A stretch of 64,000 nt of DNA from Cyanidioschyzon merolae (GCA_000091205.1 AP006484.2); one strand, 5' to 3'. Positions 34,562 through 64,000 are shown, numbered from the stretch's first letter. The notes: generated by a model from the letters alone, not told the origin. Made by a program: numbers and translations.

Positions 34562-37382
34562 ATACCTTTCCTACCCGCACAAGCGCAACGTCGAAAACGG
34601 AATTGTTTTCGCAGTCTACATACGTGGCAGAAGACCATGGAACGCTGAAGTACTCGCTCTGTTCCTGCCTTTCGATATTTTCTTGGAAGTTTTGTATACG
34701 TCTAGCCTTGGCGTTCAGAGTGAAGCAATAAGAGCATATGGATTCGTACGTTGGTTTAGAATTCTGGGTCGTGGATTCGGGTTAGCTCCTTCGACATTTG
34801 CCACTGGAATCCGTTACGAACACGGGTAAAGAGATGATTTACGACATCACCGAATCAGGGGTGATAGCGCAACAGACATCGTTATCCAGTGTATACAGGC
34901 TGGAATCCAATGTCATCTTTTCCTTGCGTTTAACATGATGGGGTCACATATCCGTCAAGTTTTCCAGCTTTCGCTCTCAAGGCAACTCGTGAGCGCAGGT
35001 ATTCGCCGCACTGGTTCGACGAGGAAGAATACTCGACTTTGTCACTCTTTGACTTGTTCAAAAGCTCACGTGACGATACTGCTCTGGAATCGCCCCGTAT
35101 AATACTCGACTCTGTTCAAAACATGAATCATACCGTTTTTGTAGACACCGACGAATTCGTAATCACCAGCACCAGCATGATCCACCTAACAGTATACGCC
35201 CTTAGCGACTCCCGTTTCTTCTATTCTGTTCCATTGGAAATGCAAAAACTGGAATTGGACTTGAATCATCGTAGCGATCGACTCCAGTGGGGCATGCGTT
35301 ACCGCTTTGCACAAACCGAGCGATCGCTGATCAAAATTGCTCTACTTGCACCCCAACATGGATTTCCTTTCCCGTGCTTGGTTCATCGTTGACAACACCA
35401 TGTTCCGGGAAACCGCCATCGAGCATGACAGTGTGCGGTCGCGCATGTATCGGACAGAGTACGAAAAGCGAGAATCGACCAGAAGAAGGTTACGATCGTC
35501 GGGCATGGCTCTGGACGTGGAAACGGAGGGCATCGAGTCGAGCCCTCTGTCCACGTCGAGGTCGTATACCGAGCAATGAAGAAAGCCTTCAAGCTGAGGT
35601 GGCCACCAGGGTAGAGAATATGGGAGACACATGGGGAAATGTTAGCAAAATACAAGTGTCACCGTTGCGAAGGGCGCACCAAGGCTTACGACAAAGAGCG
35701 TAAACATAGCGAGAGAAACCTTCACCGGAATCGTCGTCTGTTCATGAAACGCATAGCCCACAGCCTGAACCAGATAAGTCACGACTCGAACGCTGTCATG
35801 AACATCCCTCCATTGCTGGAAGCGGATCTAGGAGTAAAAGAGTTTCCAACGTATTAGACGCAGTAGATAAGCGCGCGGAAAGGTAGCTGTCGCAGAAGAA
35901 ACCAGGATGGGCTGGTATTGATGACGCGAGGAATACGCCAAAGATTCGTGTGTGTACGCCTCAGTTAGACGACTCGTTCCATTCTACTCTGACGAGGGCG
36001 CAGCGAAACGACGCGAGCTCTCAGCCGCATCGTACAACCCTAGCGGGGTGCGGATGCTCCAGAGAACCCTGTCCACGTACAAGCTTTCCATGATTTTAGA
36101 TACCATTCGCTAGAGGTAAATATGGATTGACTAGGTAGCTCTAATTGCCGAGTTGCAGCTTTCAGAGGCATCTCAGGCGACGCGAGAACTTTTCAGTTGG
36201 ACACAGAACGCGCTGCGTCTTTCGGTTCCGAGTACGTTCAGTTCCAGATCCGAGACTGCGTCCTGCCATGATACTTGTCCCGTGCGCATTTAGGATAAGG
36301 GAGGGCTTTTCTGTGGTTTGTCCCCGTTAAGAAAGGACGTTCGGAAAGGTGGAACCTTCCTATACAACATATGCATATGGGTTAGTGGCGATACGTCGCC
36401 GCTGTGCATTCCGTGGAGGTTCGGTCCCAGTGCCGCCTCCACCGCAGTCGAATGGTGTCCGTGTGAGTCGATGCCTCACGGCCTTGCATTGCACACAAAC
36501 ATGGAACATGGAAACGTGATCTTGTTAGAAAAGCTCCTGGGCAACCAAGCTGAAGCCTTACTCTACTTCAACGACGGTAGGAGTGCACAGTCTCGCTTCA
36601 TATCGCCCGTAAATGTGGATATCATCGAGGACGCACCAATCGCAATGTGAACGGGCTCCAGCCCAGGAAACAATAGACTCGACATGAAAACACGGGAATG
36701 AAACAGCACATTTGATGTTGCCGCCTTCCTAATCCATTCGAAACAGCTCACGTGGCACAATTGCCTTGTTGAGTAGCGTCGCTCATTTTCAGACAGACCT
36801 GAACGGGTGTACAAATTTAGGGGTCAAGAGCAAGGTTCGCTCTGGAATGCGCGCCCGGAGGCTTGCTTTGGAAACAAACTTAAACAAGAAGCTCCTCTAT
36901 ACCGTCCAACTATGTGTCATGATGCGTTTTTTCATCATCAGAGCAAGATATGCTGGACAGAGCACCTTGTCCGGCGCATGAGCGGTACGCCCACCGAGTC
37001 CTCCGGAATACACGGGGGATACCTGCAGCGCTCGCTGCCATACTCCCGTGTTTGCAGGACATCGGAGTTCAGCTTCGCTGCAACAAGCACAAAACGCCTT
37101 GATTGTTTGTCTGTCCTGAACTTTTTATAGTGTCTTCGGAACGGTAGCAGAGGCATATTTAACTTACGGAGACTTTTCGGGAACGAGGACCCACAGACGC
37201 TTTTCTCGAGCGGAAACCCGGTGCAGACACCGTCTCTGGTATCCCTGAGTTGGGGTTCACGCGAATCGGCAACCAGTGTCTGGTGTCGCTTTGGAGGGCC
37301 CATTCAAGCGCCTTGCTCGGTACGCTTCACGTGAGCGCTGCTCGAAGAGCCGAGTTTGCCGGCGAATCCCCGAGGAAAGCGA

Positions 37383-44561: not shown

Positions 44562-47261
44562 ACGGTACACGACAATACTATGCTAACGGTAACGCAAACG
44601 CTCAGTTACAGCACACAAGTTGCCTGAAGAACCAGCAAACACCAACTCCCGGATGATCTGCTTGCAACCGTGCTTGCTATCCAGATACAATTCGATGATA
44701 CAGAAAAACGTTTACTGGAAAGTGTAACGGAATCGAGACGTTGATCTCGTGGCTGTCGCCAGCGCTGGAGATCGCACCCAATCGCCCGTGCGGATCTTTA
44801 TCGAAGCGGTGGAGGTCGCGATTCGTACCCTTCCAGGCTGGCATGTGTGTCGTTGCAGTGCGACTTTTTGTTTTCATGACCCGGGATGGATTGCGTCCGA
44901 CGCTGGATGCGACGTATCTACTCATGAGCGTGTTCGATGCGAATAGGATATGGAACTGCTCGTTCGGTTCCTTTCCGTCGATCCTTTTCCGAACTTGGTT
45001 TCGATGTACCGTTTCGAGATTGGACGTGCAGCGATCAGTGCTTTCGGATTCATACGTAATTTTAGGATTTTCGGTCGTTGATTCGGAGTGGCGTCTTTGA
45101 CGCTTTGCTGTTGGAATTCATAACGTGATCGCAATCAAGATGATTCGAGACGCGATCGAACGAGGATTCACCAAAGAACCAATATCAGGATCCAATGCGT
45201 CCACAGATATGATTCTCTAATCTTCTTGTCGTTTCTGTCAGACCAGCATGTTCAAATCACGCGTGCTTCAAGTTTTCAACCGTTCTGACTCAAGGCCTCT
45301 GGTGGGCGCAGTGATTCTCACCCTTTGAGTAACGAGGAATCAAACTCGAGGTTATCTCACACCGAATTCCTCACAGGATCATGCCGAACGTTTACAAGGC
45401 TTCTCCTGCAAGTTCATCGATTCCGTTCGAAACACGAATTCGGCTATCTTTTGTGGCCATGGACGAAGCGGTACTCCACAGGAAGATGAAGCTCCGCATG
45501 AGATCAGCGCCCACAGGCCCCCGTCCTTTGTGTTCCCATTGAAACCGGTGTTGAACTTTCTCATCGGAGCGATAAGGTCAGATGGAGACTGCGTCACCGC
45601 GCTGCACGGAGGCGGCGTAGAGGGATGGAAATCTTTCGATTTTCTGTCCAGCCTGGATTTTACTGCCTGTACTTGTTTCTTCATGGACTACATCGATTTC
45701 CGCAAATCTCTTTTCATCGAAATACAGAAAAGAATCAATATTGGGCTATCAGAGAAACTCAAGCTGATTCTCCGTGGTTCGACCAGACTGAACGCCCCCA
45801 AGGCCGTCACGAACAGGCTTAGGGAAACAAACGCGTATATCGATCACACAGCTTGTCCTCAGCACGAATTTGTGCTCGATGCTTTCGGCATCATTCACGA
45901 GGCAATCCGGGCTCGTCGGAACCTGTTTTCCACGGGCCTTTGGCTTCCGCGAACTGCGAATGTCCGATGAGGCATACTGAAAAGAGATGAACCAGGCCTG
46001 AAGAGCAAATGCATCATGCATGCGTATCAAGGGAGACACGCGGTCCACACACGACAGGTATGCCAGCGAAACAACTCTATGAACGAAACAAAGAAATCCT
46101 GGTGCTTTTCGAAACGAGGTGCGATTAAACGCCGGAGAACGTCTCCATTTAAAAACGATACACGTTCCTGAATGAAGCTCGTGTTTTGGGTGTCCTCATA
46201 GAAGCGACGCTGCGCACATCGTCATTCGAAGATGCTATGGTCTGAACAGGATACCGCAGGACGTACTTGCTTTTGCTGAAACACACAGAGCGCGTGCAGA
46301 AAAAATGCGTTCTTTTTTCGCCGCGAGCTCCTGCAACACGCTTGTGTCACGCCCAAGATCGCGTATTTTGGATGCGTCGAGGATCTTGTCGACCTGGAGA
46401 ATGTTGTAGAGGTACATTCCAGACTGAAGACAATTCTTGTTCTTGATCGTTTCGAGAAGGTGCTGGGTACACCTTATTCGCTCCGTGCTCTCTTGGACGC
46501 TGCGCGCACATCAGCTCCCCAACTGAACGACATGGCGGATGACGCGGACCTCATTCGCTCGGTGTCTCAATGCGAACTGTATAGCATAGAGAAGTGTGTT
46601 GTAAGATGCTCGGGCAGCGACCCTGAACCGTGTCAGGGTCCATGTCCAGCGGTGCATCAACGATTCGATGAAATGAATGCGAGCGGCCGACTACTCGCTT
46701 ACGGTGCTTGGCGGCACGACGGGGCGCTTCATGACCGGGGCTTCGTCGACGGCGACCAGCTCGGAAGATAGATGCACCGTAATGAACCTCCGTGGAATAT
46801 TCTGCGAGGGCGAACGCGCAGATGAGCAGATAGAACTGGCGCCTGTCAGCATTCTGCCGACGAAGCAAAGGCGCTTTTGCAGGCCGACGACTGCCCCGAT
46901 GCGCATGAAGAGAAGAGATTCTCGCCTTTTCCGAGCGCATCTCTCTGTCAGTTGTACCAGCGCAGGGATGGAAGCTTCTTTCGTCTACTTTTGTAGACGG
47001 GCATCCGCGCCGAGCTGCCGCAGCTGCGTCCGATTGAGAATAAGGTCATCGAAGACGAAGAGGAGCTGACTCCATCGAACTCTATGGAGCAGCCTTTCAG
47101 GCACGAAATGTGCCGGAGGCAACTGAATCCGATAGCAGGCAGCCGGTCAAATACCGGGAGGCGTCTATGAGTGGTTTTAGTTTACGCTCCATGATCATGA
47201 AGCTTTTTTTCCTGTTTCAATGATGACGTATCGCCATACCTGCAGGGCACGTTGAACGTGT

Positions 47262-47325
47262 GGTGCGCGTTGCTCGCACGCACGCATGCCCCGATGCGTG
47301 CACGCACGCATGCACGCACGCATGT
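47262..47325. repeat. (GCACGCAT)-like imperfect microsatellite
   Basis: Direct read: gcacgcacgcatgccccgatgcgtgcacgcacgcatgcacgcacgcatg. Lies about 200 bp upstream of the rhomboid gene ATG. Confidence 0.5.
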
Positions 47326-47516
47326 CGATACGCAGCCAGCGCTGCCGTGCGTTTATCATCGAAAATCGCTTCTGAACTGGATACGAACAACGTATCGCGA
47401 TTCAGGCATTCCGTGGAGGTATCACGGGAAAGGCGGTCTCTTTCAAGCAGGTATTATACCAGCGTTTTTGTTGAAACGCTTGAACAAGCTGCTAGTAGCC
47501 TGCAGAAGTCTCCCTC

Positions 47517-48611
47517 ATGCAACAGAAACCCGAAAATATAGCGTTTGTGTCGGCAGCTTGGACCCGGCTTCGAAGTCAACGGCCGATTCTTGGCGGTACG
47601 ACCCGGGGGCTCACGCTGCCGAAACGAGCGCAGTGGCTGCCCTCTGGGGTATCCCTAGTCGTTAGACGACGGTGGCATCATTTGAATCCGTTTCGTGTGT
47701 GTGCCGCTGCGGATAGCGATGAGCGTGATCAGAGCCCGGTCGGCGGTGGCGAGGAGCCACCCACGGGACCCGGTAACAAGCCGGACAAACCTGTGGGCTC
47801 GCGTCCGTATATCGCAGTGATACCCGCACCGAGGCCGGTGTTGACAACAGGAATTATAGGCATCAACATCCTGACATACTTGGCGGAGCTCTACTTTGAG
47901 GTTGAGGGAAAACTCAGCGGGGCGAACTCTAACATCCTATTGGCTCTAGGCGCAAAGATCAACAGTGCGATCGCTGCAGGCCAGCTGTGGCGATTATTCA
48001 CGCCGATATTCCTGCACGGCGGCCTGCTGCATCTCCTAAGCAACACCTATGCATTGTACGCAATCAGCTATGAATGTGAAATGGCATATGGACCGCTTGC
48101 GTTTGCCGTGATCTACCTCGCGAGTGGCGCTTGGGGGAACCTGCTTTCCTACTGGTTCACGCCCTACTTGTCCGTAGGCGCCTCATCATCCATATTTGGT
48201 CTCTTTTCCGCTTATATTGTGTATCTGGTGAACAACTATGCAATTCTCGGTAGACAGGCGCGTCGCCAGATCACTGTGCTTGTTGCGCTCGTGGTTTTCA
48301 ACTTTGCATTTGGAAGCACACCAGGAGACGCTATCGACAACAGCGCACATCTGGGTGGTGCAATTGCCGGGGCGCTTCTGAGCGAGATCGTTGTCCCCGA
48401 ACTGATCCTTCGTGATGCGAACGGCCAGCTGCTGGAAAATTTGAAAGCGGAAGAGGTTGAGATGCAGTTACGAAAAGGAGGGAAGATTGAGGTGAAGCGC
48501 AAACCTGCTGCAACAGTTGTAAGCGCTGGTCTGTGGTTCTCTCTCTTGGCCTGCGGTGCAGCGATCTTGCGCTCGAGCCCGGCGGAGAATTTTGGTGGTG
48601 GCATGCTCTGA
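47517..48611 (+). CDS. Rhomboid-family intramembrane serine protease, with an N-terminal presequence
   Basis: ATG confirmed at 47517. Catalytic 'GASSSIFGLF' (GxSG-type serine motif) and 'SAHLGGAIAG' (His motif) sit in predicted transmembrane helices, on a six-to-seven TM core. An N-terminal region of about 110 aa is Arg-rich ('TRLRSQRPILGGTTRGLTLPKRAQW...VVRRRWHHLNPFRV'), suggesting organellar targeting. Confidence 0.8.
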   Translation: MQQKPENIAFVSAAWTRLRSQRPILGGTTRGLTLPKRAQWLPSGVSLVVRRRWHHLNPFRVCAAADSDERDQSPVGGGEEPPTGPGNKPDKPVGSRPYIAVIPAPRPVLTTGIIGINILTYLAELYFEVEGKLSGANSNILLALGAKINSAIAAGQLWRLFTPIFLHGGLLHLLSNTYALYAISYECEMAYGPLAFAVIYLASGAWGNLLSYWFTPYLSVGASSSIFGLFSAYIVYLVNNYAILGRQARRQITVLVALVVFNFAFGSTPGDAIDNSAHLGGAIAGALLSEIVVPELILRDANGQLLENLKAEEVEMQLRKGGKIEVKRKPAATVVSAGLWFSLLACGAAILRSSPAENFGGGML

Positions 48612-50393: not shown

Positions 50394-51830
50394 CAGTTCA
50401 TTTTACACCCACGTCACTGTAAAATACAATCGATTTATCACCAACGCCGCATAACCGAAAGCTCGGATCGCTTCAACCTCTCATAAGCACCAAACCGTTT
50501 GCGAGCAATGCTAGGCTTGCCATCCGTTGCCGTGCTCATCTCCGGCATTCAATACACCGGTATCGCTATTCCACCAGGCCTCGTCCGTAGTCGTCGTTCA
50601 GCGGCGCTGGTGGCAGCGCTCAACATTCACGATGACCCAGTTTCCAGCTCGTATCGATGTATTCCACACAACAACGAAAGTCCTCATCCATACAATGCCT
50701 GGCAGGTTCAGCTTCTGGGTACACAGCCGCGGTGCGCCCTTCGCAGCCGCTAACACTCGGTTGTCGTCAGGGATGCAAATGTTTCCGCCACACCGCCGCC
50801 TCATGCTCCCCTGAGCGCCGCTCTGAGGCACATCAAGACTTGGCCCAGCGCTCGCTTCTCGGCATTGACGGACGCCCACAGAGCGCTATTCGAGACGCCC
50901 TCACCCGCTGTCGATCCTGGTGCGGTTTCCCGGGATGTCGTCCCGCTTCTGGTTGATACCTTGCGCCGGTGCTCTGTCCGCTGTGCATACGATGGGGGCG
51001 CCATGCTCCCAGCCGCATCCGCATGTGGGATATTCGGTCATGTACAGGATGCAATACGTGCGGGACGGGAAATCCATACTGCACAACTGGATCCTACGCG
51101 TCGATCCGCCTATGCTTCGTCCATGAACAACGGTGACGCAGGCTCCACTGGAGTGCGGGTGCTGTGATGGCTCCAGCCCGAGTCCAAGGCGCTTTCGCGA
51201 GGAAACAGAAGAGACGGAGACGTCTCGCGGACGCATCCCACGAGATGTGATGTGCAGCCGTGGACTCGCGTCTCGTCGGTGTTCGCAACGAGACAGAGAG
51301 CGAGCGCGTGGACAGCGGAGATTGTTTCTCGAACGGAGTCGATGATTCGACGCACGAAGCTCAGTGAGCGTCTGGCACGATGCTGTGACATACTCGTCAA
51401 GCGGCAAGGTAGAGTGCTTTCCCTCGTCAGTCCGGACGCGGCACCTGCTGCGCGTACGTGTTGCCTCGAAACCGAACGATCGCATACTTGAGGCGTGTGT
51501 GGATTCGGCACGCTTTACGTAAGGAGAAGCGAAGAACAGACGCTTGCCCGTCTGCACTGCATCGTGATACCGTCCAGCTTACGAACACTGGGTCGAGGGG
51601 GTCGCGACTCCTCTTGGACTCGGTCAGGAGTACGGATAGCAGCGGCGAGGCGTCCGTGAAGTCACTTGGAAAAACTTCCGAGCCTCTCTGAATGACGCAC
51701 GAGTCCGTGAGCCGTCGTCGCTGGACTTGGAATACCGAAGCTGTCCATGTAAAGCATAGCTCGGAAAAATAGATACAGACAAATAGAACGAGCAGGTCAG
51801 TGTTTCCTTTTACCTGAAACGTGTATCGTG
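50394..51830. repeat. Direct repeat copy A (about 1.43 kb), upstream of the GH31 gene
   Basis: About 99% identical to 56364-57792. Identical ORF-track translations appear in both copies, for example 'MRAMLGLPSVAVLISGIQYTGIAIPPGLV...' at 50499 and 56462, differing at only about 15 positions. Begins at '...ttacacccacgtcactgtaaaatacaatcg' and ends at '...gtcagtgtttccttttacctgaaacgtgtat'. Confidence 0.9.
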
Positions 51831-52198
51831 AAAAACGCGACAACTTGGACTACTGGAGAGTTGCGCCCCGCCATGAAAGACGTCAAACAGCATCGTAGAA
51901 GCTTAGCTTTCTGGTTTCGGTAACCACTGAATTGTCACACTCACACAGTTTACGTAAAGTACCTTCCTCATCAATAAAAATGAGAGAGCAATCAAGTCCT
52001 CGGGACGCTCACGTCTCCTGAGCCTTGGCCAATACCATATGGCGAGTAGCAACCTCCAGCGTTTCACTTGTCCGTTGTGGTTGCTTCTGGTCGAACGATA
52101 GACGCTGGAAAGACACGCTGGCCTCTCATTCGTTTCAGCTGCAGTAACCGCGTATTTATGTTCACTGGTTTTGTGTTTTGCGCGGATTACTACAGGGC

Positions 52199-55171
52199 AT
52201 GAGGGCGTACCAGAGCACGTGGCCCTGCGGGTTCGTCACGGTGCTTCCGGCAGACCCAGAAGCGCGAGCACTATGCCCGAGTGAGCACTGGCTTCCATGG
52301 AAACACGCCGAAGACGCCCGCTACCAGCAATTGATCGTCGATCTCATTTCGAAAGATGAGAGCGTTGTTGTGCTCATCCTCATAGAGCGAACACCAGAGC
52401 AAACCGCCGAACCAAGCACAAACGCTCCGCTCGAACCGCTCCTGGGTATCGCCTTGTCGTTGCCGTTACGCCAACCCACTCAAAGCGTGACCCCAAGTCT
52501 AACGAGCCTGAAAACAGAACACGAATCTCGACGAGCAGTGAACGAGCACCTCTCGCGGCTGACGCCACTGGAAACTGGTGCGCTGGACCCAGCACCTGGC
52601 TCCTCACCGCAGAATGTGCTGCATGTGCAAGGCACTGCACATGAAGGCCTCTTAGAGTGCCACGTTTGCTACAGCCAGACTAAGGCATATGCGCGCCTCC
52701 AGCGTGATGTACTGGTATGGCGAGTCACTGACTCCCCTGACAACGAAAGGTTTCCCGAAGTTCGGATTCACTTGCGAGCGGCAGGACGATGGTACGGCAC
52801 TGGCCACCTGATGCAACAGCACTGGCCCAGCTGCGCGGCTTGCCTTGAACTAGGGCCTTTCTATCCTTTCGATAATGGAGTGTGCGGGCTAGGGACCCTC
52901 GCTATTCCCGGCTGGTGTACCACCGGGGGATTTGCAATTCTGGTTGACGAGCGTAGGACACCCTATCTTCATGTAGGTATGAATGCACCACGTGAAACAG
53001 ATGCTGCAGCCTCACGTCGTGCCTGGACGGTAGGCCATGAGAACGCGCTGCGACAGGTACTTCCACTGCGAGACAGACGTTTTCCGCCTCGAGCCTTGGC
53101 TGGATCACACCAGAGCCCGTTACCTCTAGGTGACGACCTGCTCCGCATCCAGTCACGCTACGGTTACGACTACGAACGTGTCTGGCATCCATTATTGGGT
53201 ACTCGACTCGGATACGAAGACGAACTTGTGGTCTATGTGCATCTAGTGGTTACTCCTCGGCCAAACGTGCGCGCAGCGCGTGAGGCGCTCCTCGAACGCA
53301 TGGGTGCAGCGGCGACGGGGAGACGACTTTTGTCCCCACCTCGAAGCCTGCTCCAGCATCCTATTTGGACGACCTGGGCCCGCTTCAAGCAGAACGTAAC
53401 ACAGGAGGATGTTCTGAGTTTTGCGCAAGAGATTGCAGCGCGGAACCTGCCGCGCAGTGTGATGGAAATCGATGATCGTTGGTCCGAAGCCTATGGTGAT
53501 TTTCGCTTCGATAGGGTCAAGTTTCCGCAACCAGCACAGATGGTGCAGGCGCTGCATGCTCTGGGCTTCAAAGTAACGCTTTGGTGCACTGCTTTTATTG
53601 AGGAAAAGAGTCAAGCGTATCTAGAGGGGCGTTCGAAAGGGTATCTGGTTGCCGATGGGGCCCTCTTTCCCTGGTGGCAACCGCAGCCGGTCGCTGCGCT
53701 CGATGTGGCCAATCCAGAGGCCTGTCGCTGGTTCTTAGAGCGGGCACGAATCCTACGTGCTGAGACCGGGGTTGACGGGTTCAAGTTTGATTCAGGAGAG
53801 CCGTGTTGGTTACCCCGGCAGCTCGAGGCGTACACCCAGCTCGCATATCCCGGTCAGTATACGGACTGGTGGCTGCAGCGTGTTGTTCTGCCACTCATTC
53901 TTGGAACAGAGGCGCCGCAGGTCACTGGTACAGATCACAGGATAGGCATGGAGGCGAGTGCATCGCTTCCTGTGACCAGGATGGATGCTGGAAGCGTAGC
54001 AGCATCCGATGCATTTCGCGCGACTCGAGAAACCCCTTACCTCATTCGGAAAGCAGCAACTCGCGAAGCACAGCCCGAGACAGAGAGCCCGCGCTTCTCG
54101 GTAGAAGCCGAAGCGCGAACAAACTCAGGAGTTGCCGCCCATGCCGTACTGTCTGCGACAACCTTGGACGACGCAGAGCAGGTGCCTGTTGCTCCCGCCG
54201 AGGCTCGCGCAGCGACAGCCACTGGACTCGCGGCGGGTGCCCAGCCAGCCCAGTGGATCCCTTGTCTGTACCGCATGTTCGATCGTTTCTCCCATGACGG
54301 GATCGACAACGGGCTAGCGTCGGTGATCCCCACCATGCTTACCAGTGGTGTGTTGGGATTTTGCTTCGTTCTCCCAGATATGGTCGGTGGTAACGAGTAC
54401 GATCAAGTGCAGGCTGGCGCTGATCTCATGATGCGTTGGCTCTACGCGAATGCGCTGATGCCCTCCATCCAGTTATCACTGCCGCCCTGGAAATATGGAG
54501 CAAGCGTTGAGGCAGCGCTTGTTGAGGCTCTTGCTGTTCGGAAGCATATCCTCGAGGATAGCGGCCTTTTGGAGGCGCTCGTGCGTTCGGCTTGTGAAGA
54601 GGGAGCCCCCCTTGCACGGCCAATGTGGTGGCTCTGTCCTCAGCTCGCTATCTCGTGGGATATCGATGATCAGTTTATGCTGGGCGATGACGTGTTGGTA
54701 GCGCCAATGCTGACACCGCTGAGTGCGGTATACACCAGTGCAGCGATCGATGCTCTGAATGCAGACCAAGATACCCACGTACCCGGGGTGACGCATCCAC
54801 TCGGGCCGACGCCGTCGACTACCGCTACGCACACACTTGAGCGCGTGCCGCAACAAGTGCCTCCGAGCAAGTCGCCGCGTTCCTCATCCTGTACGCCAAA
54901 TATGACAGATTCACGTTCCCTGCAGCCTCGGCAACGTCAGGTCTGGTTGCCCCCTGGTAACTGGTGTGCCTATCACCCCAGCAGCAGTATCGGCGCAGTG
55001 CGGCTTGCTACGCCTGCTCCAGCACCGCTGACGGGTCCCTGCACGATCACAACGACAAGCGTTCTCCCGGTTTACGTGCGAGTCGGATCCGCCGTAGCGC
55101 GTTTCGTTTTCGCTGATGCTGAAGAAGCGGCGGCTCACCTGGTCGAAAGTCATGGTATCAACGACGCCTGA
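52199..55171 (+). CDS. Glycoside hydrolase family 31 (clan GH-D) protein, YicI/MYORG-like
   Basis: The 'VMEIDDRWSEAYGDFRFD' block matches the GH31 'IDDxW' region. 'ETGVDGFKFDSGEPCWLP' matches the GH31 catalytic-nucleophile region (compare YicI 'GVDCFKTDFGE'). The track start at 52178 is TTG and the first ATG is at 52199. The C-terminal ~200 aa are low-complexity and Pro/Ser/Thr-rich. Confidence 0.75.
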   Translation: MRAYQSTWPCGFVTVLPADPEARALCPSEHWLPWKHAEDARYQQLIVDLISKDESVVVLILIERTPEQTAEPSTNAPLEPLLGIALSLPLRQPTQSVTPSLTSLKTEHESRRAVNEHLSRLTPLETGALDPAPGSSPQNVLHVQGTAHEGLLECHVCYSQTKAYARLQRDVLVWRVTDSPDNERFPEVRIHLRAAGRWYGTGHLMQQHWPSCAACLELGPFYPFDNGVCGLGTLAIPGWCTTGGFAILVDERRTPYLHVGMNAPRETDAAASRRAWTVGHENALRQVLPLRDRRFPPRALAGSHQSPLPLGDDLLRIQSRYGYDYERVWHPLLGTRLGYEDELVVYVHLVVTPRPNVRAAREALLERMGAAATGRRLLSPPRSLLQHPIWTTWARFKQNVTQEDVLSFAQEIAARNLPRSVMEIDDRWSEAYGDFRFDRVKFPQPAQMVQALHALGFKVTLWCTAFIEEKSQAYLEGRSKGYLVADGALFPWWQPQPVAALDVANPEACRWFLERARILRAETGVDGFKFDSGEPCWLPRQLEAYTQLAYPGQYTDWWLQRVVLPLILGTEAPQVTGTDHRIGMEASASLPVTRMDAGSVAASDAFRATRETPYLIRKAATREAQPETESPRFSVEAEARTNSGVAAHAVLSATTLDDAEQVPVAPAEARAATATGLAAGAQPAQWIPCLYRMFDRFSHDGIDNGLASVIPTMLTSGVLGFCFVLPDMVGGNEYDQVQAGADLMMRWLYANALMPSIQLSLPPWKYGASVEAALVEALAVRKHILEDSGLLEALVRSACEEGAPLARPMWWLCPQLAISWDIDDQFMLGDDVLVAPMLTPLSAVYTSAAIDALNADQDTHVPGVTHPLGPTPSTTATHTLERVPQQVPPSKSPRSSSCTPNMTDSRSLQPRQRQVWLPPGNWCAYHPSSSIGAVRLATPAPAPLTGPCTITTTSVLPVYVRVGSAVARFVFADAEEAAAHLVESHGINDA

Positions 55172-56363
55172 CAATGGGCTATTGCGGGCCCTGAAAAATT
55201 GAAGCGTCAACCGTTCGCAGCGCTGGAGGATCATGCAGATCCGCAGCGATATCGTGGTTTGGTGGTGTCGGGCTTTACCACTTTAGAGCACATGAAGATC
55301 GTTGATATCTGGAGCATCACGATGCTTTGCTGCTGGTGCCAGTGCTGGTGCTGCTCCAGGAACCACTGGAAATGACTTTGTACAGGCGTCATCACCCGCA
55401 TCTATGCTGTGACCTTGGCCGAGGAGTCTTCGTGGGGGAGCTTCCTGCTGCCCGCTGGGCCCCGAATAGTGGAACCCTTGTCATACTCATTTCAAAATGG
55501 TCTGAGATACAAGCTGAGCGAACGCATTGCTCGCCAGAGCGGTATCATTTGCGCACCAAGGACAAACAACAACCACACGAGGTTCAGTCCGCCGGGCTCA
55601 GAAACGTCAGGAAGGCGTCATCGTCTTAAGATGCACAAGTCTGTCAGTTTGTACAAAAGAGCGATCGGGCTGAACTGAGTCCGCCCGTTCGTAGGTAAAA
55701 GTGACGAGGTTCACCCTGGCTGGTGTCTTGGGTCGAATGCGGGTCCACACGGAGCACTGGTGCAAAGTTACGTGAGACGCTGGGAGGTTTTTCTTTGCCG
55801 TACCACCTGCTCCAGGAACAGCGAGCTTAGCACAACCAAGAGAAGTTGCTTCATGAGGGGAGGCGCTATGATGGCCGTCTATTCTCGAAACTGTCGACAA
55901 GTACAGAGGAGATGTGGCGCGAAAAGCACACGTGAGGTTAAGTGGTGCACGCCTTGCTGCAGTGCACGCGAAGACGCAGAGAAGTACAGCTGCTGCACGG
56001 GTGCAGCCTTGTCAACGAGGATGCCGTGTGTGAACGGTACGAGCAGTGCATCGTCGCTTCCGAGACGCTGCGCTACGCAATAGGGCATAGTTTGATACAT
56101 GGAAGCTTCTCTTGGCCCGATACGGAGGCGACTGACCGTGATCGACGGTTCGGGTATCCGTCTCTCTGAAACGACACTGCACCGTAGTCAAGCGAGTCAA
56201 GTGCAGTTCGCTATGCATCCAATATACGGGCGAGGTCAGCGCCGAAAATCAGTACCAGGTCTTGCTGGTGTATCGTGGAAGAAGCAGCTGCATAGGAACG
56301 TATTGGAACTGTGTAAGACAAGCTGCGAATTTGATCACTGATCTATAGTTTAGAACCGGAATT

Positions 56364-57792
56364 CTTTACACCCACGTCACTGTAAAATACAATCGATTTA
56401 TCACCAACGCCGCATAACCGAAAGCTCGGATCGCTTCAACCTCTCATAAGCACCAAACCGTTTGCGAGCAATGCTAGGCTTGCCATCCGTTGCCGTGCTC
56501 ATCTCCGGCATTCAATACACCGGTATCGCTATTCCACCAGGCCTCGTCCGTCGTCGTCGTTCAGCGGCGCTGGTGGCAGCGCTCAGCATTCACGATGACC
56601 CAGTTTCCAGCTCGTATCGATGTATTCCACACAACAACGAAAGTCCTCATCCATACAATGCTTGGCAGGTTCAGCTTCTGGGTACACAGCCGCGGTGCGC
56701 CCTTCGCAGCCGCTAACACTCGGTTGTCGTCAGGGATGCAAATGTTGCCGCCACACCGCCGCCTCATGCTCCCCTGAGCGCCGCTCTGAGGCACATCAAG
56801 ACTTGGACCAGCGCTCGCTTCTCGGCATTGACGGACGCCCACAGAGCGCTATTCGAGACGCCCTCACCCGCTGTCGATCCTGGTGCGGTTTCCCGGGATG
56901 TCGTCCCGCTTCTGGTTGATACCTTGCGCCGGTGCTCTGTCCGCGGTGCATACGATGGGGGCGCCATGCTCCCAGCCGCATCCGCATGTGGGATATTCGG
57001 TCATGTACAGGATGCAATACGTGCGGGACGGGAAATCCTTACTGCACAACTGGATCCTACGCGTCGATCCGCCTATGCTTCGTCCATGAACAACGGTGAC
57101 GCAGGCTCCACTGGAGTGCGGGTGCTGTGATGGCTCCAGCCCGAGTCCAAGGCGCTTTCGCGAGGAAACAGAAGAGACGGAGACGTCTCGCGGACGCATC
57201 CCACGAGATGTGATGTGCAGCCGTGGACTCGCGTCTCGTCGGTGTTCGCAACGAGACAGAAAGCGAGCGCGTGGACAGCGGAGATCGTCTCTCGAACGGA
57301 GTCGATGATTCGACGCACGAAGCTCAGTGAGCGTCTGGCACGATGCTGTGACATACTTGTCAAGCGGCAAGGTAGAGTGCTTTCCCTCGTCAGTCCGGAC
57401 GCGGCACCTGCTGCGCGTACGTGTTGCCTCGAAACCGAACGATCGCATACTTGAGGCGTGTGTGGATTCGGCACGCTTTACGTAAGGAGAAGCGAAGAAC
57501 AGACGCTTGCCCGTCTGCACTGCATCGTGATACCGTCCAGCTTACGAACACTGGGTCGAGGGCGTCGCGACTCCTCTTGGACTCGGTCGAGAGTACGGAT
57601 AGCAGCGGCGAGGCGTCCGTGAAGTCACTTGGAAAAACTTCCGAGCCTCTCTGAATGACGCACGAGTTCGTGAGCCGTCACCGCTGGACTTGGAATACCG
57701 AAGCTGTCCATGTAAAGCATAGCTCGGAAAAATAGATACAGACAAATAGAACGAGCAGGTCAGTGTTTCATTTTACCTGAAACGTGTATAGA
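56364..57792. repeat. Direct repeat copy B (about 1.43 kb), downstream of the GH31 gene
   Basis: Second copy of the 50394-51830 element in the same orientation, about 5.97 kb downstream. Flanks differ on both sides, so this is a two-copy repeat around a single-copy gene. Confidence 0.9.
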
Positions 57793-58149
57793 TCTCGTGG
57801 TGCGAAAAAACAAGATACTCGTGCGCTTGTTCGGCGAAACCTGAGAGCGTTCGCAGGATCTGTCTATATTCTGGAGCAGTGGACGCCCGCAGGTTCCAGG
57901 CCCCGGTCAAGACCCGTTCTTTTTCACGCAACGAGCTGCCGGAGACGCCCCTGCAAAAGCACATGTGCGCTGGCGTTTTTCCCATGGACGTCACGAATGC
58001 TACGTTTCGAACAACCGCCCAAGTCCAGAGCTCTTGAACGACTCCAGCAACTATCGTCACAGCATGCCTGTGCCGTTCAGATACAAAGCACGTTCTCTTG
58101 GAGACGCATTGCCCGTCCTTCCTGGACATCACGACGACACCTGCACCGT

Positions 58150-60273
58150 TCACACATTGGACACGTTTTTCTGGATACGCATCGCCCATCTTTCCAGGAG
58201 ACGAGATTTTCGAGCGAGCGGGTCCGCAGCTAACGCCCGAATAGCATCCCGCAGCTGAATTGTCGAGTATGCGCTCATCCCACGTGGCAACGTCGAAGAC
58301 GCAGCCGACGCTTCTGGTGCTGTGCTTGCGTGCTGCCGCGCAGCCAGCCGTGGTTTGGTACGACGCTCCGACTCCCAGTCTGGCTCCGCTGTGGTGCCAT
58401 CGTTGGCGTCTGCTCGTTCGTAATCGGTTGTAGAGGGACGCGTACGCGTTGGAACAGGACGCTTTCGGCGAGCTGCAGTCAGTGCAGCGAGCATTCCACT
58501 CAGCGCCACATTGGTCTCCTGGACTTTTTCCCGTTGACGAGCTTGCTCCAACGCAAGCCGACGGTGATGGAGCTGGACTCCAGTATCGGCGTTCTCACCC
58601 TCGTCTGGCAGGTTCAGCGCATATCGCTTTCGAGCTCGCTCTTCCAAGAGTTTCTTGCGCTGCTGTGCCAGCACACGTCGTACAGATGATTCGGGTACAA
58701 CCAGAGTCAGCGCGTATCGGGGATATGCCTGGCGCCTAGCTGCTGTCCACTGGAGCGTGCGCTCGAGCACTTGCCGCAGTCGCGTCTCTGCGGCCTGACT
58801 GAGCAGGGCAAGGCATGACTTGGCTGCCCGCAGGTTCCCGTGTCTCTGGAGCGCCTCCAGGAAACGCGCTGTTAACGCTTGCTGATCGAGGAGAAACGAT
58901 TCCGGTGCGGCGTCTACGACCGCAGTGACAACATTCTCCTGTTCCAGAAGAGCTCGTTCTCGTTCCAAGTCTACCTTGACGAGACGCTCTACATCGTCGT
59001 CATCGTCGTTGCCAGTATCTTCAGGCCCAGGGCTTGCAGCACTTCCGTCTGGTTCATTGGCGGCATTATCTTCATCGTCATCATCATGCTCCCTTGTCTG
59101 AGTACCTGCTGCTGCTGCCGACGATACAGCGCTTTCGATTGCAATCATAGGGCCAGCGCCGGCTGCTGCATGGCGTTGCGAAGCGAGGGATGCTCCACCA
59201 ACAACTCCGCCCGCCTCGCGAGCACTCTGCAACGACTGCGCGTAGGGTAGTGAGTTCGCACTCGGCACCGGCCTGGAGCCTGGCATGGATCGTCGCTCAG
59301 CGCTGGCTCCTCCGGGGCGCGTGCCCGAGGGAGTAGGGTGCGTTTTGGGAAGCGCAGTGACCTCGCTCCCGACGACAGCTGCCGGCATGCCCGTTCGGCT
59401 CGTTACTGGATCAGCGCTTGGTGGCTCCGTTCGTGATGCAGGTGCGGGAGCGTCTCCAGTTGCCGACCCAGCCGTCCCTGAAGTCGATGCTGCAGGTGCC
59501 TGCCGCGGTGCAGTGCAGAAGCGCACAAAGTCGCCCCAGAGATCCGGCACAGCACCATCCGTCGCTCGGTGAAAGAGTTCCCGCAGTGCTCTCCGAAATG
59601 AATGATAGTCTGTACGATCCTCGGCGAGTTCGCAGAGCTTATCACGAATCGCCCGTCGATACGAATTGAAGACATTCAACTGCGATGCATCCAGGCTATT
59701 CAAAGAAGCCTGACGTCCACGCATATGCTCTAAGAGTCGTCCCATGAAGTAACGCGCAAAGCGTTGGGCGAGGAAGAGCTCCGACTGGCGCTGCTGCGGC
59801 GTTCGACTCGAGTTCGGGTTCGCTGCTGGTGTTGCCCCCGAAGGCGCCGTTATCGTTGCTGTTGTTAGCGGCGGTGGCGGCAGTGGTGGTGACGTACCTG
59901 CACCAGTCGATGCTGCTCGTTCGCCTGCACCGGCTCGGGCTGCTGTCCCGATGCTTGCCGCACTCGCCACCGCGACTGGCGTCTGTGCTGCACCCTGGCG
60001 ACCGGCGAGGGCGCTCGCACTGGATGACGTGCTCAGTGGCACGGAAAGCAACGATGCTCCCACTCCGTTCCCATTGCCACCCTGTCGGTAACTGCTTGAC
60101 TGGATCAGCGACGCTAGGGTATCGATTTCCCGCTGTAGCGCCCCGTCGCCATCTGGAGCGCGTGCTCCCCGTAAACTAGAAACGTACTCGTCTAGGGCTG
60201 CACCGGGTGCAGCCGCTTCCGACTGATCCCTCGTTGGTCCGGCAGATCGTGCCCTAGGCGATGCCCTTCTCAT
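58150..60273 (-). CDS. Putative TFIID subunit TAF4-like protein. Divergent, with a long low-complexity N-terminus.
   Basis: The C-terminal region 'FLLDQQALTARFLEALQRHGNLRAAKSCLALLSQAAETRLRQVLERTLQWTAARRQAY...' aligns in pattern with the conserved TAF4 C-terminal domain (compare human 'FLLQAPLQRRILEIGKKHGITELHPDVVSYVSHATQQRLQNLVEKISETAQQ'). Downstream is a basic coiled region ending '...LAALTAARRKRP'. The track start at 60339 is GTG and the first ATG is at 60271-60273. The rest is Ala/Pro/Ser/Thr-rich. Confidence 0.5.
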   Translation of the reverse strand: MRRASPRARSAGPTRDQSEAAAPGAALDEYVSSLRGARAPDGDGALQREIDTLASLIQSSSYRQGGNGNGVGASLLSVPLSTSSSASALAGRQGAAQTPVAVASAASIGTAARAGAGERAASTGAGTSPPLPPPPLTTATITAPSGATPAANPNSSRTPQQRQSELFLAQRFARYFMGRLLEHMRGRQASLNSLDASQLNVFNSYRRAIRDKLCELAEDRTDYHSFRRALRELFHRATDGAVPDLWGDFVRFCTAPRQAPAASTSGTAGSATGDAPAPASRTEPPSADPVTSRTGMPAAVVGSEVTALPKTHPTPSGTRPGGASAERRSMPGSRPVPSANSLPYAQSLQSAREAGGVVGGASLASQRHAAAGAGPMIAIESAVSSAAAAGTQTREHDDDDEDNAANEPDGSAASPGPEDTGNDDDDDVERLVKVDLERERALLEQENVVTAVVDAAPESFLLDQQALTARFLEALQRHGNLRAAKSCLALLSQAAETRLRQVLERTLQWTAARRQAYPRYALTLVVPESSVRRVLAQQRKKLLEERARKRYALNLPDEGENADTGVQLHHRRLALEQARQREKVQETNVALSGMLAALTAARRKRPVPTRTRPSTTDYERADANDGTTAEPDWESERRTKPRLAARQHASTAPEASAASSTLPRGMSAYSTIQLRDAIRALAADPLARKSRLLERWAMRIQKNVSNV

Positions 60274-61995
60274 GGAACGCGGTTGACAGGGGGTTTCCTT
60301 GCTGGAGTACGTCGCACCCGCGGACGCCTGTGCTTGCACTCGCAGGAAGCGTACGCGTTTTACGGCTGCTCGACGGCACCCCCGGCGACCGCGGAGAAGC
60401 TCACTCGAGTCTACGCAGTTGTAGACGCTGGTCCTAGGGCTCTGAAACTCCTGCTGGAAGCGCGTTTAGTAGGAAAGCGACTCGCTAGAAGAACGCCCCC
60501 GTAAAAGCGGTCGGTATATATAGACGCTGTTGGTTGAAGTGTTCAGCGCCGGAGCATGAGGCGCAGGATAGCGGCGTTCGCGTGCCCTGGAACTGTTCTC
60601 CCTGCAGTGCTCCGGGAAAAGTGTTTGCAACAGCCGTTTGTTTACACTGTGTGCTTCAAGTGAGGGGTTCACGAGGAAGGTTCCTGAGGACGAGAACTGG
60701 AGTGTGCCTGAAGGGTTCGCGCTCGCGCCTCTAGAAGTGGCTTTTGGGCGCGAACGACGCTGCTGTTGTGGGTGTACGCTTCGGCACCAGCTGACAGGTC
60801 ACTGGTAACGTGGAGAACCCCTGTGAGCAGTTGGAAGTATTTGGTTCGTCTAGGTCGGCACAGGTGTTGCATCCTGGTTCGCTTTTCGCGTTCTTGGCTT
60901 TGTTGAGAGCAAGTTGGAGCACGGGCGGTAACGAGGCCGGACGAGCGCCTATAAGAACCGAACTTCAACTGCTTGTCCAGTGCTGTGGCCGTGCTTCCTT
61001 ATAGCGTTCACTGTAGGAGGACCGATCAAAGTCTCTGGTGGCGTTACAGGCTTGGGCGGCGACTCGCTCGCGCAGCTTTACGTCATGGTCTACGAGTGCA
61101 CGGTAGCGGGCGGGTTGCGAGCACGCGTTGGGGAGAACGCGCTCGAGAACCAGGCTCTCTGTCGAAGTGCTCGGCAGAACGACTGGTGGTTTCACCTCGA
61201 GTCGCTGCCGTCCCCGCACTGCGTCCTGGAGAACCCAAACGGGGCCTGGAGAGAGCCCCCTCGCGAAGCAGTTTTGGCTTGTGCTCAGCTCGTGAAAGAG
61301 CGTTCAAAATGGCGTCAGGTGCATCGCGTCACGGTTATCTATCTACCGGCCAAATATGTCAGCAGGAGACATCTTCAATCGGACGAAAAACCTGGCAGTG
61401 TCGTGTTGCTGAAAGAGCCCCGTCGAGTCGTCATTTAGGGACCCATAGGGATATCAGGAGAAAGAACGCGAGCGCACATCGGCACACTGATAATCATATG
61501 CAGCGCCACTGAAACGTACTTACTCATTCATGCGTACCGTCATCGACATGTGACGGAGTGCTTCGTCATGCTTGCACATAACGACGATCCGCGGGCAATT
61601 CGGTAAAGATACGCATTACCTTGCACCGCCAGCGTGGATTTGTATCCCCGCGCATCAAGTTGGTACGTGTGAGAACCGTACATCATTCGACATGGAGAAG
61701 CGCTCGGCACCTGCGTCACGAGATGCACAGTGCGATCCATGAGCTGTTTTCTACAGGCGTTGGAGAAGGTCGCTTTGTGCACACGTGCAGCCAACTGACG
61801 TATTCTTAACTGGTTTCTGAAACCGTCTATCCGAGAAACATTCTATAAGCACAGGATGGTCCTCTCGACAGAGGTAACCATCAGCCGGCGTATACGTGTT
61901 CGTGAAGCGAAGCACCGAGAAGCTGTATCTTATGGGTTCGTGCTCCGGAGCCGAGCGCTGCCTGCGGTAACAAGGTGAAAGCCGTTGACGATCTA

Positions 61996-63002: not shown

Positions 63003-63160
63003 ACGCACAGCACGGCACGGCACGGCACGGCACGGCACGGCACAGCACGGCACGGCACGGCACGGCACGGCACGGCACGGCACGGCACGGCACAGCACGG
63101 CACGGCACGGCACGGCACGGCACGGCACGGCACGGCACAGCACGGCACAGCACGGCAGCG
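63003..63160. repeat. (CACGG)n pentanucleotide tandem array, about 30 units, with occasional CACAG variants
   Basis: Direct read: cacagcacggcacggcacggcacgg... running continuously for about 155 bp. It generates the spurious 'HGTARHGTAR' and 'CRAVPCRAVP' ORFs in all frames on both strands. Confidence 0.9.
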
Positions 63161-64000
63161 GCGCGCGAAACGTCGAGCAGACCTCTGGTCGGTCATGCAC
63201 GCACGCAGCATCCTCGTGCATCGAAGCTTTTCATGGCGGCAAGCACGTTGGAAATGAAGCAGGAACGATCATCCAGACGTGTACGTACTGTGTTCCATGC
63301 AGAACAGTGAATGCTGGAACAGCAGTGCCAACGCGTTCTTTCTGTTTCTATTTGATCCCCTCGCGGGTGTACATCAATGGGAATGCACCTTGGGATTGAG
63401 TCAAGGTCGAGCAACAAGGCTTCAGGCTACTACTGCTCGCTTTGGACGGAATGGCACCACTTGCACGAGTCTGATATGCTACGGTTAGCAGGTTGATGGA
63501 CCATCATTCATGTAGTTCGTACCCTGAACGTACTGCACCACACACAGAACTTTTCAAGTCTGTCCATGGGACTGCATCCTCTTCAATCGGTAGCAATCCA
63601 TAAGGTCTTTGATTAGTACCATCAAAGGAGCCATAAAATGTCGAGTTTGCTACTCGGTCTATATGAGTGGCGGGTCATAGACGGGGCTAGGAAGAGACAG
63701 CGCTCTTCTAGACATGCTCAAAAAACAGAATATTGTCCAACGATCATCGAAAGTCTAGAAGTATCGAATGACAGGCGCTTTCGAGCCTTTTCTGACCCGC
63801 TCCCTGCCATCAGCTCCAGTTCCTCCTTGTGCACTTCGACCCCGAGTAGCTGCCCCACAAATTTAGATCGCCTTAGCTCCACTGGTCGTGTCTCCAGCAC
63901 CGCATATCGTCTGATGTTGACAGCGGCTTTAGAGTGTCAGTTCACAAACCCCGTGCATTTCTTGCCGCTCGTTGAACGCACCTCTACTCCACCTCCTCCT

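Follow-up and report, generated by a model that had tools for sequence, protein, structure and literature searches.

A dispersed, decayed repeat family resembling a mariner/IS630 and Fanzor1-derived transposon in Cyanidioschyzon merolae, with a nearly identical pair of copies around a GH31 gene

The red alga Cyanidioschyzon merolae is cited as having the simplest and most transposon-poor genome of any free-living eukaryote, with 0.7% transposons and one interspersed element that occupies 5%. The present analysis concerns a 64-kb stretch of chromosome 2 of C. merolae 10D (hereafter the window, to which all coordinates refer), in which two nearly identical direct repeats of 1.4 kb, R1 and R2 (together R), stand on either side of a gene for a glycoside hydrolase of family 31 (GH31). 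The closest described systems are the composite 'Mariner + Fanzor1' elements of oomycetes and a virus, which are ~3.4-4.4 kb long, have terminal inverted repeats (TIRs) of 24-33 bp and are flanked by TA duplications (PMC3627910). In C. merolae itself, the genome paper reported no elements with long terminal repeats (LTRs), but 26 of the non-LTR type and 8 weak transposase-like elements, together with an interspersed element of ~3.2 kb in 253 copies, whose truncated open reading frame (ORF) resembles WSV486 of white spot syndrome virus (WSSV) (PMC1955436). A Fanzor1 element named CMe-1A, or TE-N2_CMe, has been described from the same genome as an unclassified element of 3169 bp with ~150 copies and no TIRs, and WSSV carries Fanzor1 as well (PMC3627910). 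Judging from its size and from the Fanzor1 of WSSV, CMe-1A very probably corresponds to the WSV486-like element that Nozaki et al. 2007 counted in 253 copies.

Self-BLASTN of the window returns one long repeat, with R1 at 50402-51826 and R2 at 56365-57789. The two copies are in direct orientation and align over 1425 bp with 18 mismatches and no gaps (98.74% identity); they lie ~4.5 kb apart, with a start-to-start spacing of 5963 bp. The mismatches (11 transitions and 7 transversions) are scattered over the whole unit, and the edges are sharp, identity dropping to random at both ends. In local alignments of the flanks (100-600 nt), no homology was found beyond the edges (z<2 relative to shuffled sequences). 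The initial annotation, which had reported two co-oriented, near-identical repeats around a single GH31 gene, is borne out by this comparison; its limits for the copies (50394-51830 and 56364-57792) were 1-8 nt too wide but otherwise correct. Both copies are assigned to the minus strand, which is that of the ancestral reading frames discussed below. The transposase-side end of R1 is 372 bp upstream of the GH31 ATG, and R2 lies 1193 bp downstream of the GH31 stop codon and 360 bp from that of a TAF4-domain gene. The copies have the end sequences TTTACAC...GTGTAT, and both can be read as TA-CAC...GTG-TA; when R1 is read as 5'-CAC...GTG-3' (50406-51823), TA stands on either side. The bases AGAT that follow R2 match the last bases of the family consensus and the flank of R1 does not, so that R2 may keep a slightly more complete element end. 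R2 is also flanked directly by GAATTC (56359-56364, left) and AGATCT (57790-57795, right). Their position beside R2 is natural and coincidental, and both are present in wild environmental contigs too.

R1 and R2 are members of a larger family. The longest ORF of R (218 aa) retrieved only its own cluster from among 5.8 billion proteins. An index-free HMMER search returned two weak relatives of this ORF, which are themselves decayed family copies, and one of them led, via the cluster member P0105, to a distinct C. merolae-like contig (L021/L022). Comparison of R with L021/L022 by tblastx gave matches in several frames and on both strands, which indicates DNA homology rather than a shared protein; in a metagenome scan with the R ORF, at least three loci are represented among the matches listed. 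When the window was searched with R1 by nhmmer, R1 and R2 being masked, five more copies were detected (E=7e-51 to 6e-37), all of which had escaped BLASTN at E<=1e-5. Four are full length, namely cA (4887-6239, minus strand, nhmmer score 1100), cB (16227-17604, plus), cC (18067-19438, minus) and cD (34616-36003, plus), whereas cE (44924-45716, plus) is truncated to model positions 591-1381. With the family profile, 7 copies are counted in the window, 6 of them full length (1.35-1.42 kb), and 2 in L021.

Pairwise identity among the copies is 50-57% over ~1350 nearly gap-free columns, as against 98.7% for R1 and R2. Positions 2-1379 of the 1386 in the family hidden Markov model (HMM) align to 50402-51825 in R1, which is 66.6% identical to the family consensus (33% diverged). 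Column conservation is ~0.70 over R offsets 0-1415 and falls to the background of 0.45-0.5 at both edges of R. Family homology thus ends where R ends, and R is a discrete element rather than an arbitrary duplicated block. Neither 3-periodicity nor a shared ORF is found in the present-day copies, the ORFs of which are broken. R was also considered as a protein gene; this was rejected, as none of its 12 ORFs has a Pfam match and codon periodicity is lacking. Six of the seven window spacers of at least 2 kb hold a family copy, and the family fills 14% of the 64 kb and ~28% of its non-ORF space, so that a gene with a copy on either side is nothing unusual. The copies are scattered, decayed and ancient, and the bracketing of GH31 is incidental. 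The initial annotation had itself named a dispersed element with a coincidental position as a finding that would overturn its reading, and with seven copies in the window this is largely the case; R1 and R2 are nevertheless uniquely alike and need an explanation of their own.

The family consensus restores long antisense reading frames, and remnants of two proteins can be recognised in them. The N-terminal part of the frame-corrected consensus matches the Pfam model DDE_3 (PF13358; 29.6 bits at a cut-off of 28.6, E=7e-7) and the NCBIfam model of IS630 transposase, NF033545 (E=1.2e-9, collinear over positions 20-238 of 299, below the 100-bit cut-off of that model). Its VAIDETAF and FIMDNIAFRKS motifs are in register with the PUl-1 transposase. 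Upstream of the DDE part, matches to helix-turn-helix (HTH) models are below cut-off (HTH_Tnp_Tc3_2, E=0.003-0.006; HTH_32, E=0.02-0.04), and the IS630 alignment spans this region. Of the catalytic triad (DD34-41E/D in this superfamily), the first two aspartates (D) can be made out, with a YSP motif ~23 residues past the second; the position of the third residue coincides with the presumed deletion junction. The C-terminal part, which is read in another frame, matches the Cas12f1-like TNB domain (PF07282; 28.8 bits, cut-off 26.3) and carries the motif ...EYLTTTKCHRCEE...LCMKCVDN...NRDLNAVTNI, which corresponds to a zinc ribbon and RuvC-III. Alignment with the Fanzor1 C-termini of PUl-1, Chlamydomonas and CMe-1 gives p=1.7e-7, 2.0e-7 and 1.8e-4, respectively, by shuffling; the three Fanzor1 proteins were taken from the supplement of PMC3627910, and swapped controls were null. 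The change of reading frame coincides with the switch from transposase to Fanzor. In all, the element keeps ~260 transposase codons and ~155 Fanzor1 C-terminal codons; a full-length Fanzor (WED/REC, RuvC-I/II) is not present, the remnant being a gene fragment of ~155 residues only. No conserved structure of the kind expected for a guide (omega) RNA was predicted at the Fanzor end (RNAalifold, 3' 300-340 nt of seven copies, 0 pairs).

The consensus also has TIRs of 23 bp (20/23 matches), which are placed symmetrically, 7-8 nt from each end, and which score 31, compared with a mean of 12+-2 and a maximum of 21 among shuffled sequences. The TIR is not detectable in R1 alone (p=0.47), nor in most single copies. 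The earlier statement that the repeats have no inverted ends is accordingly true of R by itself, but inverted ends are recovered in the family consensus.

These two modules occur in the same order and orientation in PUl-1 and PUl-2 of Pythium ultimum and in PGv-1, in which a transposase with HTH and DDE domains is followed by Fanzor1, and the TIRs are alike in length (24-33 bp in the PUl and PGv elements, at least 23 bp in the family). The C. merolae family differs in being 1.4 kb rather than 3.4-4.4 kb long and in having neither the C-terminus of the transposase nor about three quarters of Fanzor1. Unlike the PUl and PGv elements, it never can have been autonomous, and all copies seen are heavily decayed; moreover, the TA duplication documented for those elements is ambiguous here. 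R thus looks like a long-decayed, non-autonomous deletion derivative of a mariner + Fanzor1 transposon. Its parent would have been a composite transposon in which a gene for an IS630/Tc1-mariner-type DDE transposase was followed by a Fanzor1 gene, and the family would have arisen by an internal deletion that kept both inverted-repeat ends, the frame change marking the deletion junction. No full-length parent was found in the sequence available.

Several observations weigh against this assignment. The consensus was built from only 8 decayed copies, and the individual copies, R1 included, give no Pfam match when projected on the consensus frames. A pseudo-protein profile found nothing in the PDB, and its comparison with one mariner transposase gave E=0.16; the consensus protein likewise had no relative in an index of 5.8 billion proteins and no match in the PDB. 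In addition, the 5' position is TG in 4 of 5 older copies, the ends are fuzzy and the TA duplication can be read in more than one way. Readings of the ends as those of a Helitron or a short interspersed nuclear element were rejected, as there is no TC..CTRR, no poly(A) and no target duplication, and a scan for bacterial promoters and terminators was set aside as irrelevant in a eukaryote.

Two long direct repeats ~4.5 kb apart could also be taken for the LTRs of a retrotransposon or of an element resembling a large retrotransposon derivative. However, R1 and R2 lack TG...CA ends, neither gag/pol nor a target duplication enclosing the whole unit is present, and the interior is an ancestral host gene in its syntenic position. 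The family, for its part, consists of solitary 1.4-kb units with remnants of a DDE transposase and Fanzor, and no LTR elements were found in C. merolae by the authors of the genome paper (PMC1955436). The initial annotation had judged a retroelement unlikely on the grounds of the missing TG..CA and gag/pol, and the syntenic interior agrees with it; an LTR origin can be dismissed almost with certainty.

The structure of the locus is confirmed by assemblies that are independent of the window. Contigs from the Joint Genome Institute (JGI), the European Nucleotide Archive and Logan that cover the locus come from strains ~99.1-99.3% identical to the window, which fits the report that a 'C. merolae 10D-like' alga dominates such Yellowstone springs (PMC11662350). 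Independent contigs span R1 (L005, L006) and R2 (L009, L013) with unique flanks on both sides, and the inner two junctions are carried by L001, L002 and L010-L012. Across 16 R-bearing contigs, only four junction sequences are seen, all identical to those of the window, and none of these contigs shows a third genomic context for R. Duplicated or collapsed contig ends, which the initial annotation had named as a possible refutation, have nothing in their favour beyond the general risk that repeats carry; the source is a finished telomere-to-telomere sequence of 10D (PMC1955436), assemblies from several samples span each copy between unique flanks, and the copies differ at 18 sites. With all four junctions recovered independently, an assembly artefact is ruled out for practical purposes.

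Some paralogue-specific states of R1 and R2 are common to the environmental strains and 10D; offsets 580 and 674 are the clearest cases, and in contigs anchored in unique flanks the same holds partly for offsets 297, 993 and 1005. As these differences are shared between strains, the duplication predates the split between 10D and the environmental strains. Inter-strain divergence amounts to 0.8-1.3% in R, 1.2% in the left flank, 1-2% in spacers and 0.3-0.5% in the GH31 coding sequence (CDS); R diverges at the rate of spacers and not of the CDS and is therefore non-coding today.

The locus is preserved without repeats in two outgroups, Cyanidiococcus yangmingshanensis (L003) and a second, distant cyanidiophyte (L020). 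Both keep the gene order GidA - Mg-chelatase - rhomboid - GH31 - TAF4 - NFACT-R - MPC, and the spacers around GH31 are ~950-1150 bp long, compared with 3588 and 2979 bp in C. merolae. No flanking repeat or R-like sequence was found in either outgroup locus, the family profile included. It follows that GH31 occupied this site ancestrally and that the C. merolae lineage acquired the repeats. These data bear on a further reading, in which a plain segmental duplication, or the remnant of an array of repeat-GH31 units, produced the arrangement with no mobile element involved. Two co-oriented, near-identical units do bracket one gene, and in several samples assemblers close a 5963-bp loop of repeat plus GH31. 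However, the ends of the block match those of the family element within 1-4 nt, and five other sites carry that element; the flanks share no residual homology, and self-BLASTN of the window detects no second or partial copy of GH31. Moreover, the two outgroups have the same gene order with no repeats. This reading is accordingly very improbable, and the tandem-array remnant proposed in the initial annotation is not supported, since homology stops at the unit and the outgroups keep rhomboid-GH31-TAF4 with short, repeat-free spacers.

Why R1 and R2 are so alike is a separate matter. In a random segmental duplication, the two breakpoints would not both fall at the ends of an old element, which leaves two readings, namely a recent copy of one unit or gene conversion between two old ones; both had been offered by the initial annotation, and the present data favour the second. 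The GC content of R1 is 57.1%, compared with 47.5-51.2% in the other copies and 49-56% in its own flanks. In the R lineage, AT-to-GC changes reach 0.279 per AT site as against 0.149-0.193 (odds ratio 1.87, p=3.7e-6), and GC-to-AT changes are unchanged (p=0.63); an excess in the AT-to-GC direction only is what GC-biased conversion should leave behind. Searches of 5.8e9 protein clusters, 1.84e9 representatives and 16 R-bearing contigs brought up no copy that resembles R to an intermediate degree. Site patterns among strains are mutually incongruent as well. In addition, R is 33% off the consensus, its frames are broken and its ends are unpaired, so that recent transposase-mediated movement is hard to picture.

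The following course of events may be proposed. Copies would have spread through intergenic spacers long ago and then decayed to their present pairwise identity of 50-57%. Two of them, equally oriented, probably came to flank GH31 through a local hop while the family was active. This pair would subsequently have been homogenised by repeated interlocus gene conversion, that is, by concerted evolution. Conversion acts only within the element, so that identity stops exactly at the element ends, and its GC bias would have raised the G+C content of the pair. Comparable behaviour is known from primate alpha-globin units and the arms of Y-chromosome palindromes, in which linked copies are near-identical while their relatives are diverged, identity ends with homology, and there is an AT-to-GC skew. 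R1 and R2 differ from these in being dead transposon copies that have no known function, and conversion is indicated only indirectly in their case, by composition and by the lack of intermediates. To our knowledge, GC-biased conversion has not been demonstrated in C. merolae.

A number of results count against conversion. The divergence of R1 from R2 (1.26%) is about that of spacers between strains, and a simple duplication shortly before the strains split would suffice to account for it with no conversion at all. The inverted copies cB and cC lie only 460 bp apart and are 55.9% identical; this pair has not been homogenised. The excess of GC could reflect a GC-richer source subfamily, and closer copies of R may exist elsewhere in 10D, the search having covered the 64-kb window and the environmental contigs. 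The incongruence of the quartet site patterns (3-4 sites support orthology, 3-5 concerted evolution and 2-5 crossed relationships) could also stem from mosaic metagenome assemblies of near-identical repeats.

In the competing reading, one unit was duplicated shortly before the split of 10D from the environmental strains, with no long-term conversion, through a local hop, with a related and still active transposase mobilising the relic in trans, or through some other element-specific copying. Cut-and-paste transposons such as Tc1/mariner and Ac/Ds frequently reinsert close by. A recent copy would also agree with the similarity between the 1.26% divergence and that of R and its neighbouring spacers between strains (0.8-1.3%), with the small number of paralogue-specific differences common to strains, and with sharp edges that coincide with the element ends and with the TA that brackets CAC...GTG in R1 and R2 alike. 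On the other hand, it is difficult to see how a transposase could have recognised a unit that is 33% from the consensus, with broken frames and dissimilar ends; no other young or intermediate copy of R turned up in any context found, the AT-to-GC excess specific to R is left unexplained unless a GC-rich subfamily was the source, and no more than eight weak transposase-like elements are listed for the genome (PMC1955436). A recent copy is thus possible but distinctly less likely than conversion. An old pair kept alike by GC-biased gene conversion is the explanation that we favour, by a modest measure, and other or unrecognised causes take up the remaining probability. With regard to the locus as a whole, a dispersed family is observed, with shared ends, domain remnants and TIRs in its consensus and a shift in GC content in R; on this basis, R1 and R2 are probably two decayed copies of a dispersed transposon that have been homogenised as a pair, GH31 lying between them incidentally.

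Whether the pair affects the copy number of GH31 was considered in the light of contigs that close on themselves. Three of these (L001, L010 and L011, from JGI) are 6086 nt long, which equals 5963 nt plus an end overlap of 123 nt, and a fourth (L012, from Logan) has 5962 nt. They map to 51538-57769 along the path R tail - GH31 - R head, each in a different rotation, and break exactly at variable sites of R (offsets 1303, 1259 and 1405); in their graphs, the branch from the left flank is missing. The JGI metatranscriptome pipeline uses MEGAHIT with a largest k of 123. These contigs could equally be an assembler artefact or the product of amplification of the 5963-bp unit; the former could come about, for example, in metatranscriptome samples in which the left flank is not transcribed. 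In two other contigs, L004 (positions 2-9) and L018 (positions 7705-7723), a single R connects the TAF4-side flank with the rhomboid-side flank, as it would in an allele from which GH31 had been deleted; the joins depend on only 8 and 19 nt, respectively, at contig ends. These joins most likely result from path ambiguity in short-read graphs. L004, L018 and the loop contigs were therefore set aside as evidence of a deletion or circle allele; loop-shaped and apparently recombinant contigs are the usual output of short-read assemblers at any such repeat.

Co-oriented repeats of more than 1 kb around one gene are also found, together with efficient homologous recombination, at the direct repeats of Leishmania and the CUP1 and HXT6-7 circles of yeast, where repeats mediate the amplification and deletion of genes. 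The GH31 locus resembles these in both respects but differs in that no deletion or amplification allele has been demonstrated. Gene targeting by homologous recombination is reported for C. merolae (PMC12874030, PMC8642924). The unequal crossing-over envisaged in the initial annotation thus has a formal substrate in the repeats, through which GH31 could in principle be deleted or amplified. It is improbable that recombination between R1 and R2 excises or amplifies the 5,963-bp unit of repeat and GH31 as a circle or an array in natural populations; if it did, the copy number of a glycosidase gene would be switched by a pair of dead transposons.

The family of R must be distinguished from CMe-1A. 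The two resemble each other in that they share a genome, are interspersed in spacers and contain Fanzor1-type sequence. However, copies of CMe-1A are ~80% identical to their consensus, some of them are coding, and the element is ~3.2 kb long with no TIRs, whereas copies of the R family are ~67-73% identical to theirs, measure 1.4 kb, and have a TIR and a remnant of a DDE transposase. The possibility that the two are one family was rejected, since the family HMM finds no match to the 3169-bp consensus and tblastx gives nothing below E=0.1. By sequence comparison, then, the R family is separate from CMe-1A and more diverged. None of the papers covered by a literature search describes a mariner/IS630 family in C. 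merolae, and the R family is apparently an undescribed, old and dispersed relic derived from mariner/IS630 and Fanzor1.

Relics of CMe-1A are present in the window at 15645-16175, 27539-28254 (plus strand), 47063-47172 (plus) and 63752-63981 (minus). The first of these (15645-15897 and 15936-16175, plus) is an internal-deletion form in which positions 786-1027 are joined to 2831-3073, and it lies ~55 bp from the family copy cB; a very similar deletion form in L021 (282-475 and 539-759) stands beside a family copy at 985-2390. Together, cB and cC (16227-19438) span 3.2 kb, the 'average size' given in the genome paper for the 253-copy element. The spacer at 44571-47516, which holds the truncated copy cE and a CMe-1A fragment, is the segment in which the environmental strains differ most from 10D (2.04%, with indels).

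The gene between the repeats, at 52199-55171 on the plus strand, is present in a single copy and encodes a GH31 glycoside hydrolase of 990 aa (Pfam PF01055, E=4.7e-28; PF21365, E=1.6e-12). The protein is 100% identical to XP_005535193.1/BAM78907.1 of C. merolae 10D, annotated as 'similar to alpha-glucosidase'. The gene is intact in 7 of 7 environmental contigs, with 4-11 non-synonymous and 5-8 synonymous codon differences, and divergence in its CDS is 2-4 times slower than in the spacers. The PF01055-type catalytic match is broken, covering residues 406-544 (model positions 18-161 of 328), and the C-terminal domain match starts at residue 809; residues ~545-800 form a long, partly low-complexity insert rich in Ala, Thr and Pro. 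Matches outside cyanidiophytes cover only ~38-44% of the protein, and the closest non-algal relatives are GH31 proteins of Chloroflexota.

The 372-bp spacer between R1 and the GH31 ATG (51827-52198, plus strand) shows 0-1 differences from three environmental contigs and, to judge from this conservation, is probably a constrained GH31 promoter/5' untranslated region. Differences are also few (0-3) in the 360 bp that separate R2 from the TAF4 stop codon (57790-58149). The unique spacer of 1193 bp between the GH31 stop codon and R2 (55172-56364, plus) diverges by 0.9-1.5% between strains and has no homology to the other repeat flanks. The syntenic neighbours are a rhomboid-domain gene on the left (47517-48611, plus, PF01694) and a TAF4-domain gene on the right (58150-60339, minus, PF05236). 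Neither Rfam families (at gathering thresholds) nor tRNAs were found in the window, which also contains a (GCACG)n microsatellite of ~31 units at 63005-63162 and a short array of the 12-mer GCACGCACGCAT, repeated four times, at 47276-47324.

The arrangement around GH31 is largely ordinary, and its reading as a special GH31 cassette is not supported. In work that uses homologous recombination to engineer the GH31 region, the two 1.4-kb direct repeats could lead to pop-out or mis-targeting. R1 and R2 also offer a compact natural test case for interlocus conversion and GC bias in a red alga. The family itself would represent a second, older Fanzor1 lineage in C. merolae, linked to a mariner/IS630 transposase, and this link may be a clue to how the unclassified Fanzor elements of the alga moved. 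Should the window prove representative, ancient transposon debris would make up much of the intergenic DNA of C. merolae that has so far been unexplained, and the published repeat content would be an underestimate, the family being too diverged for detection by BLAST.

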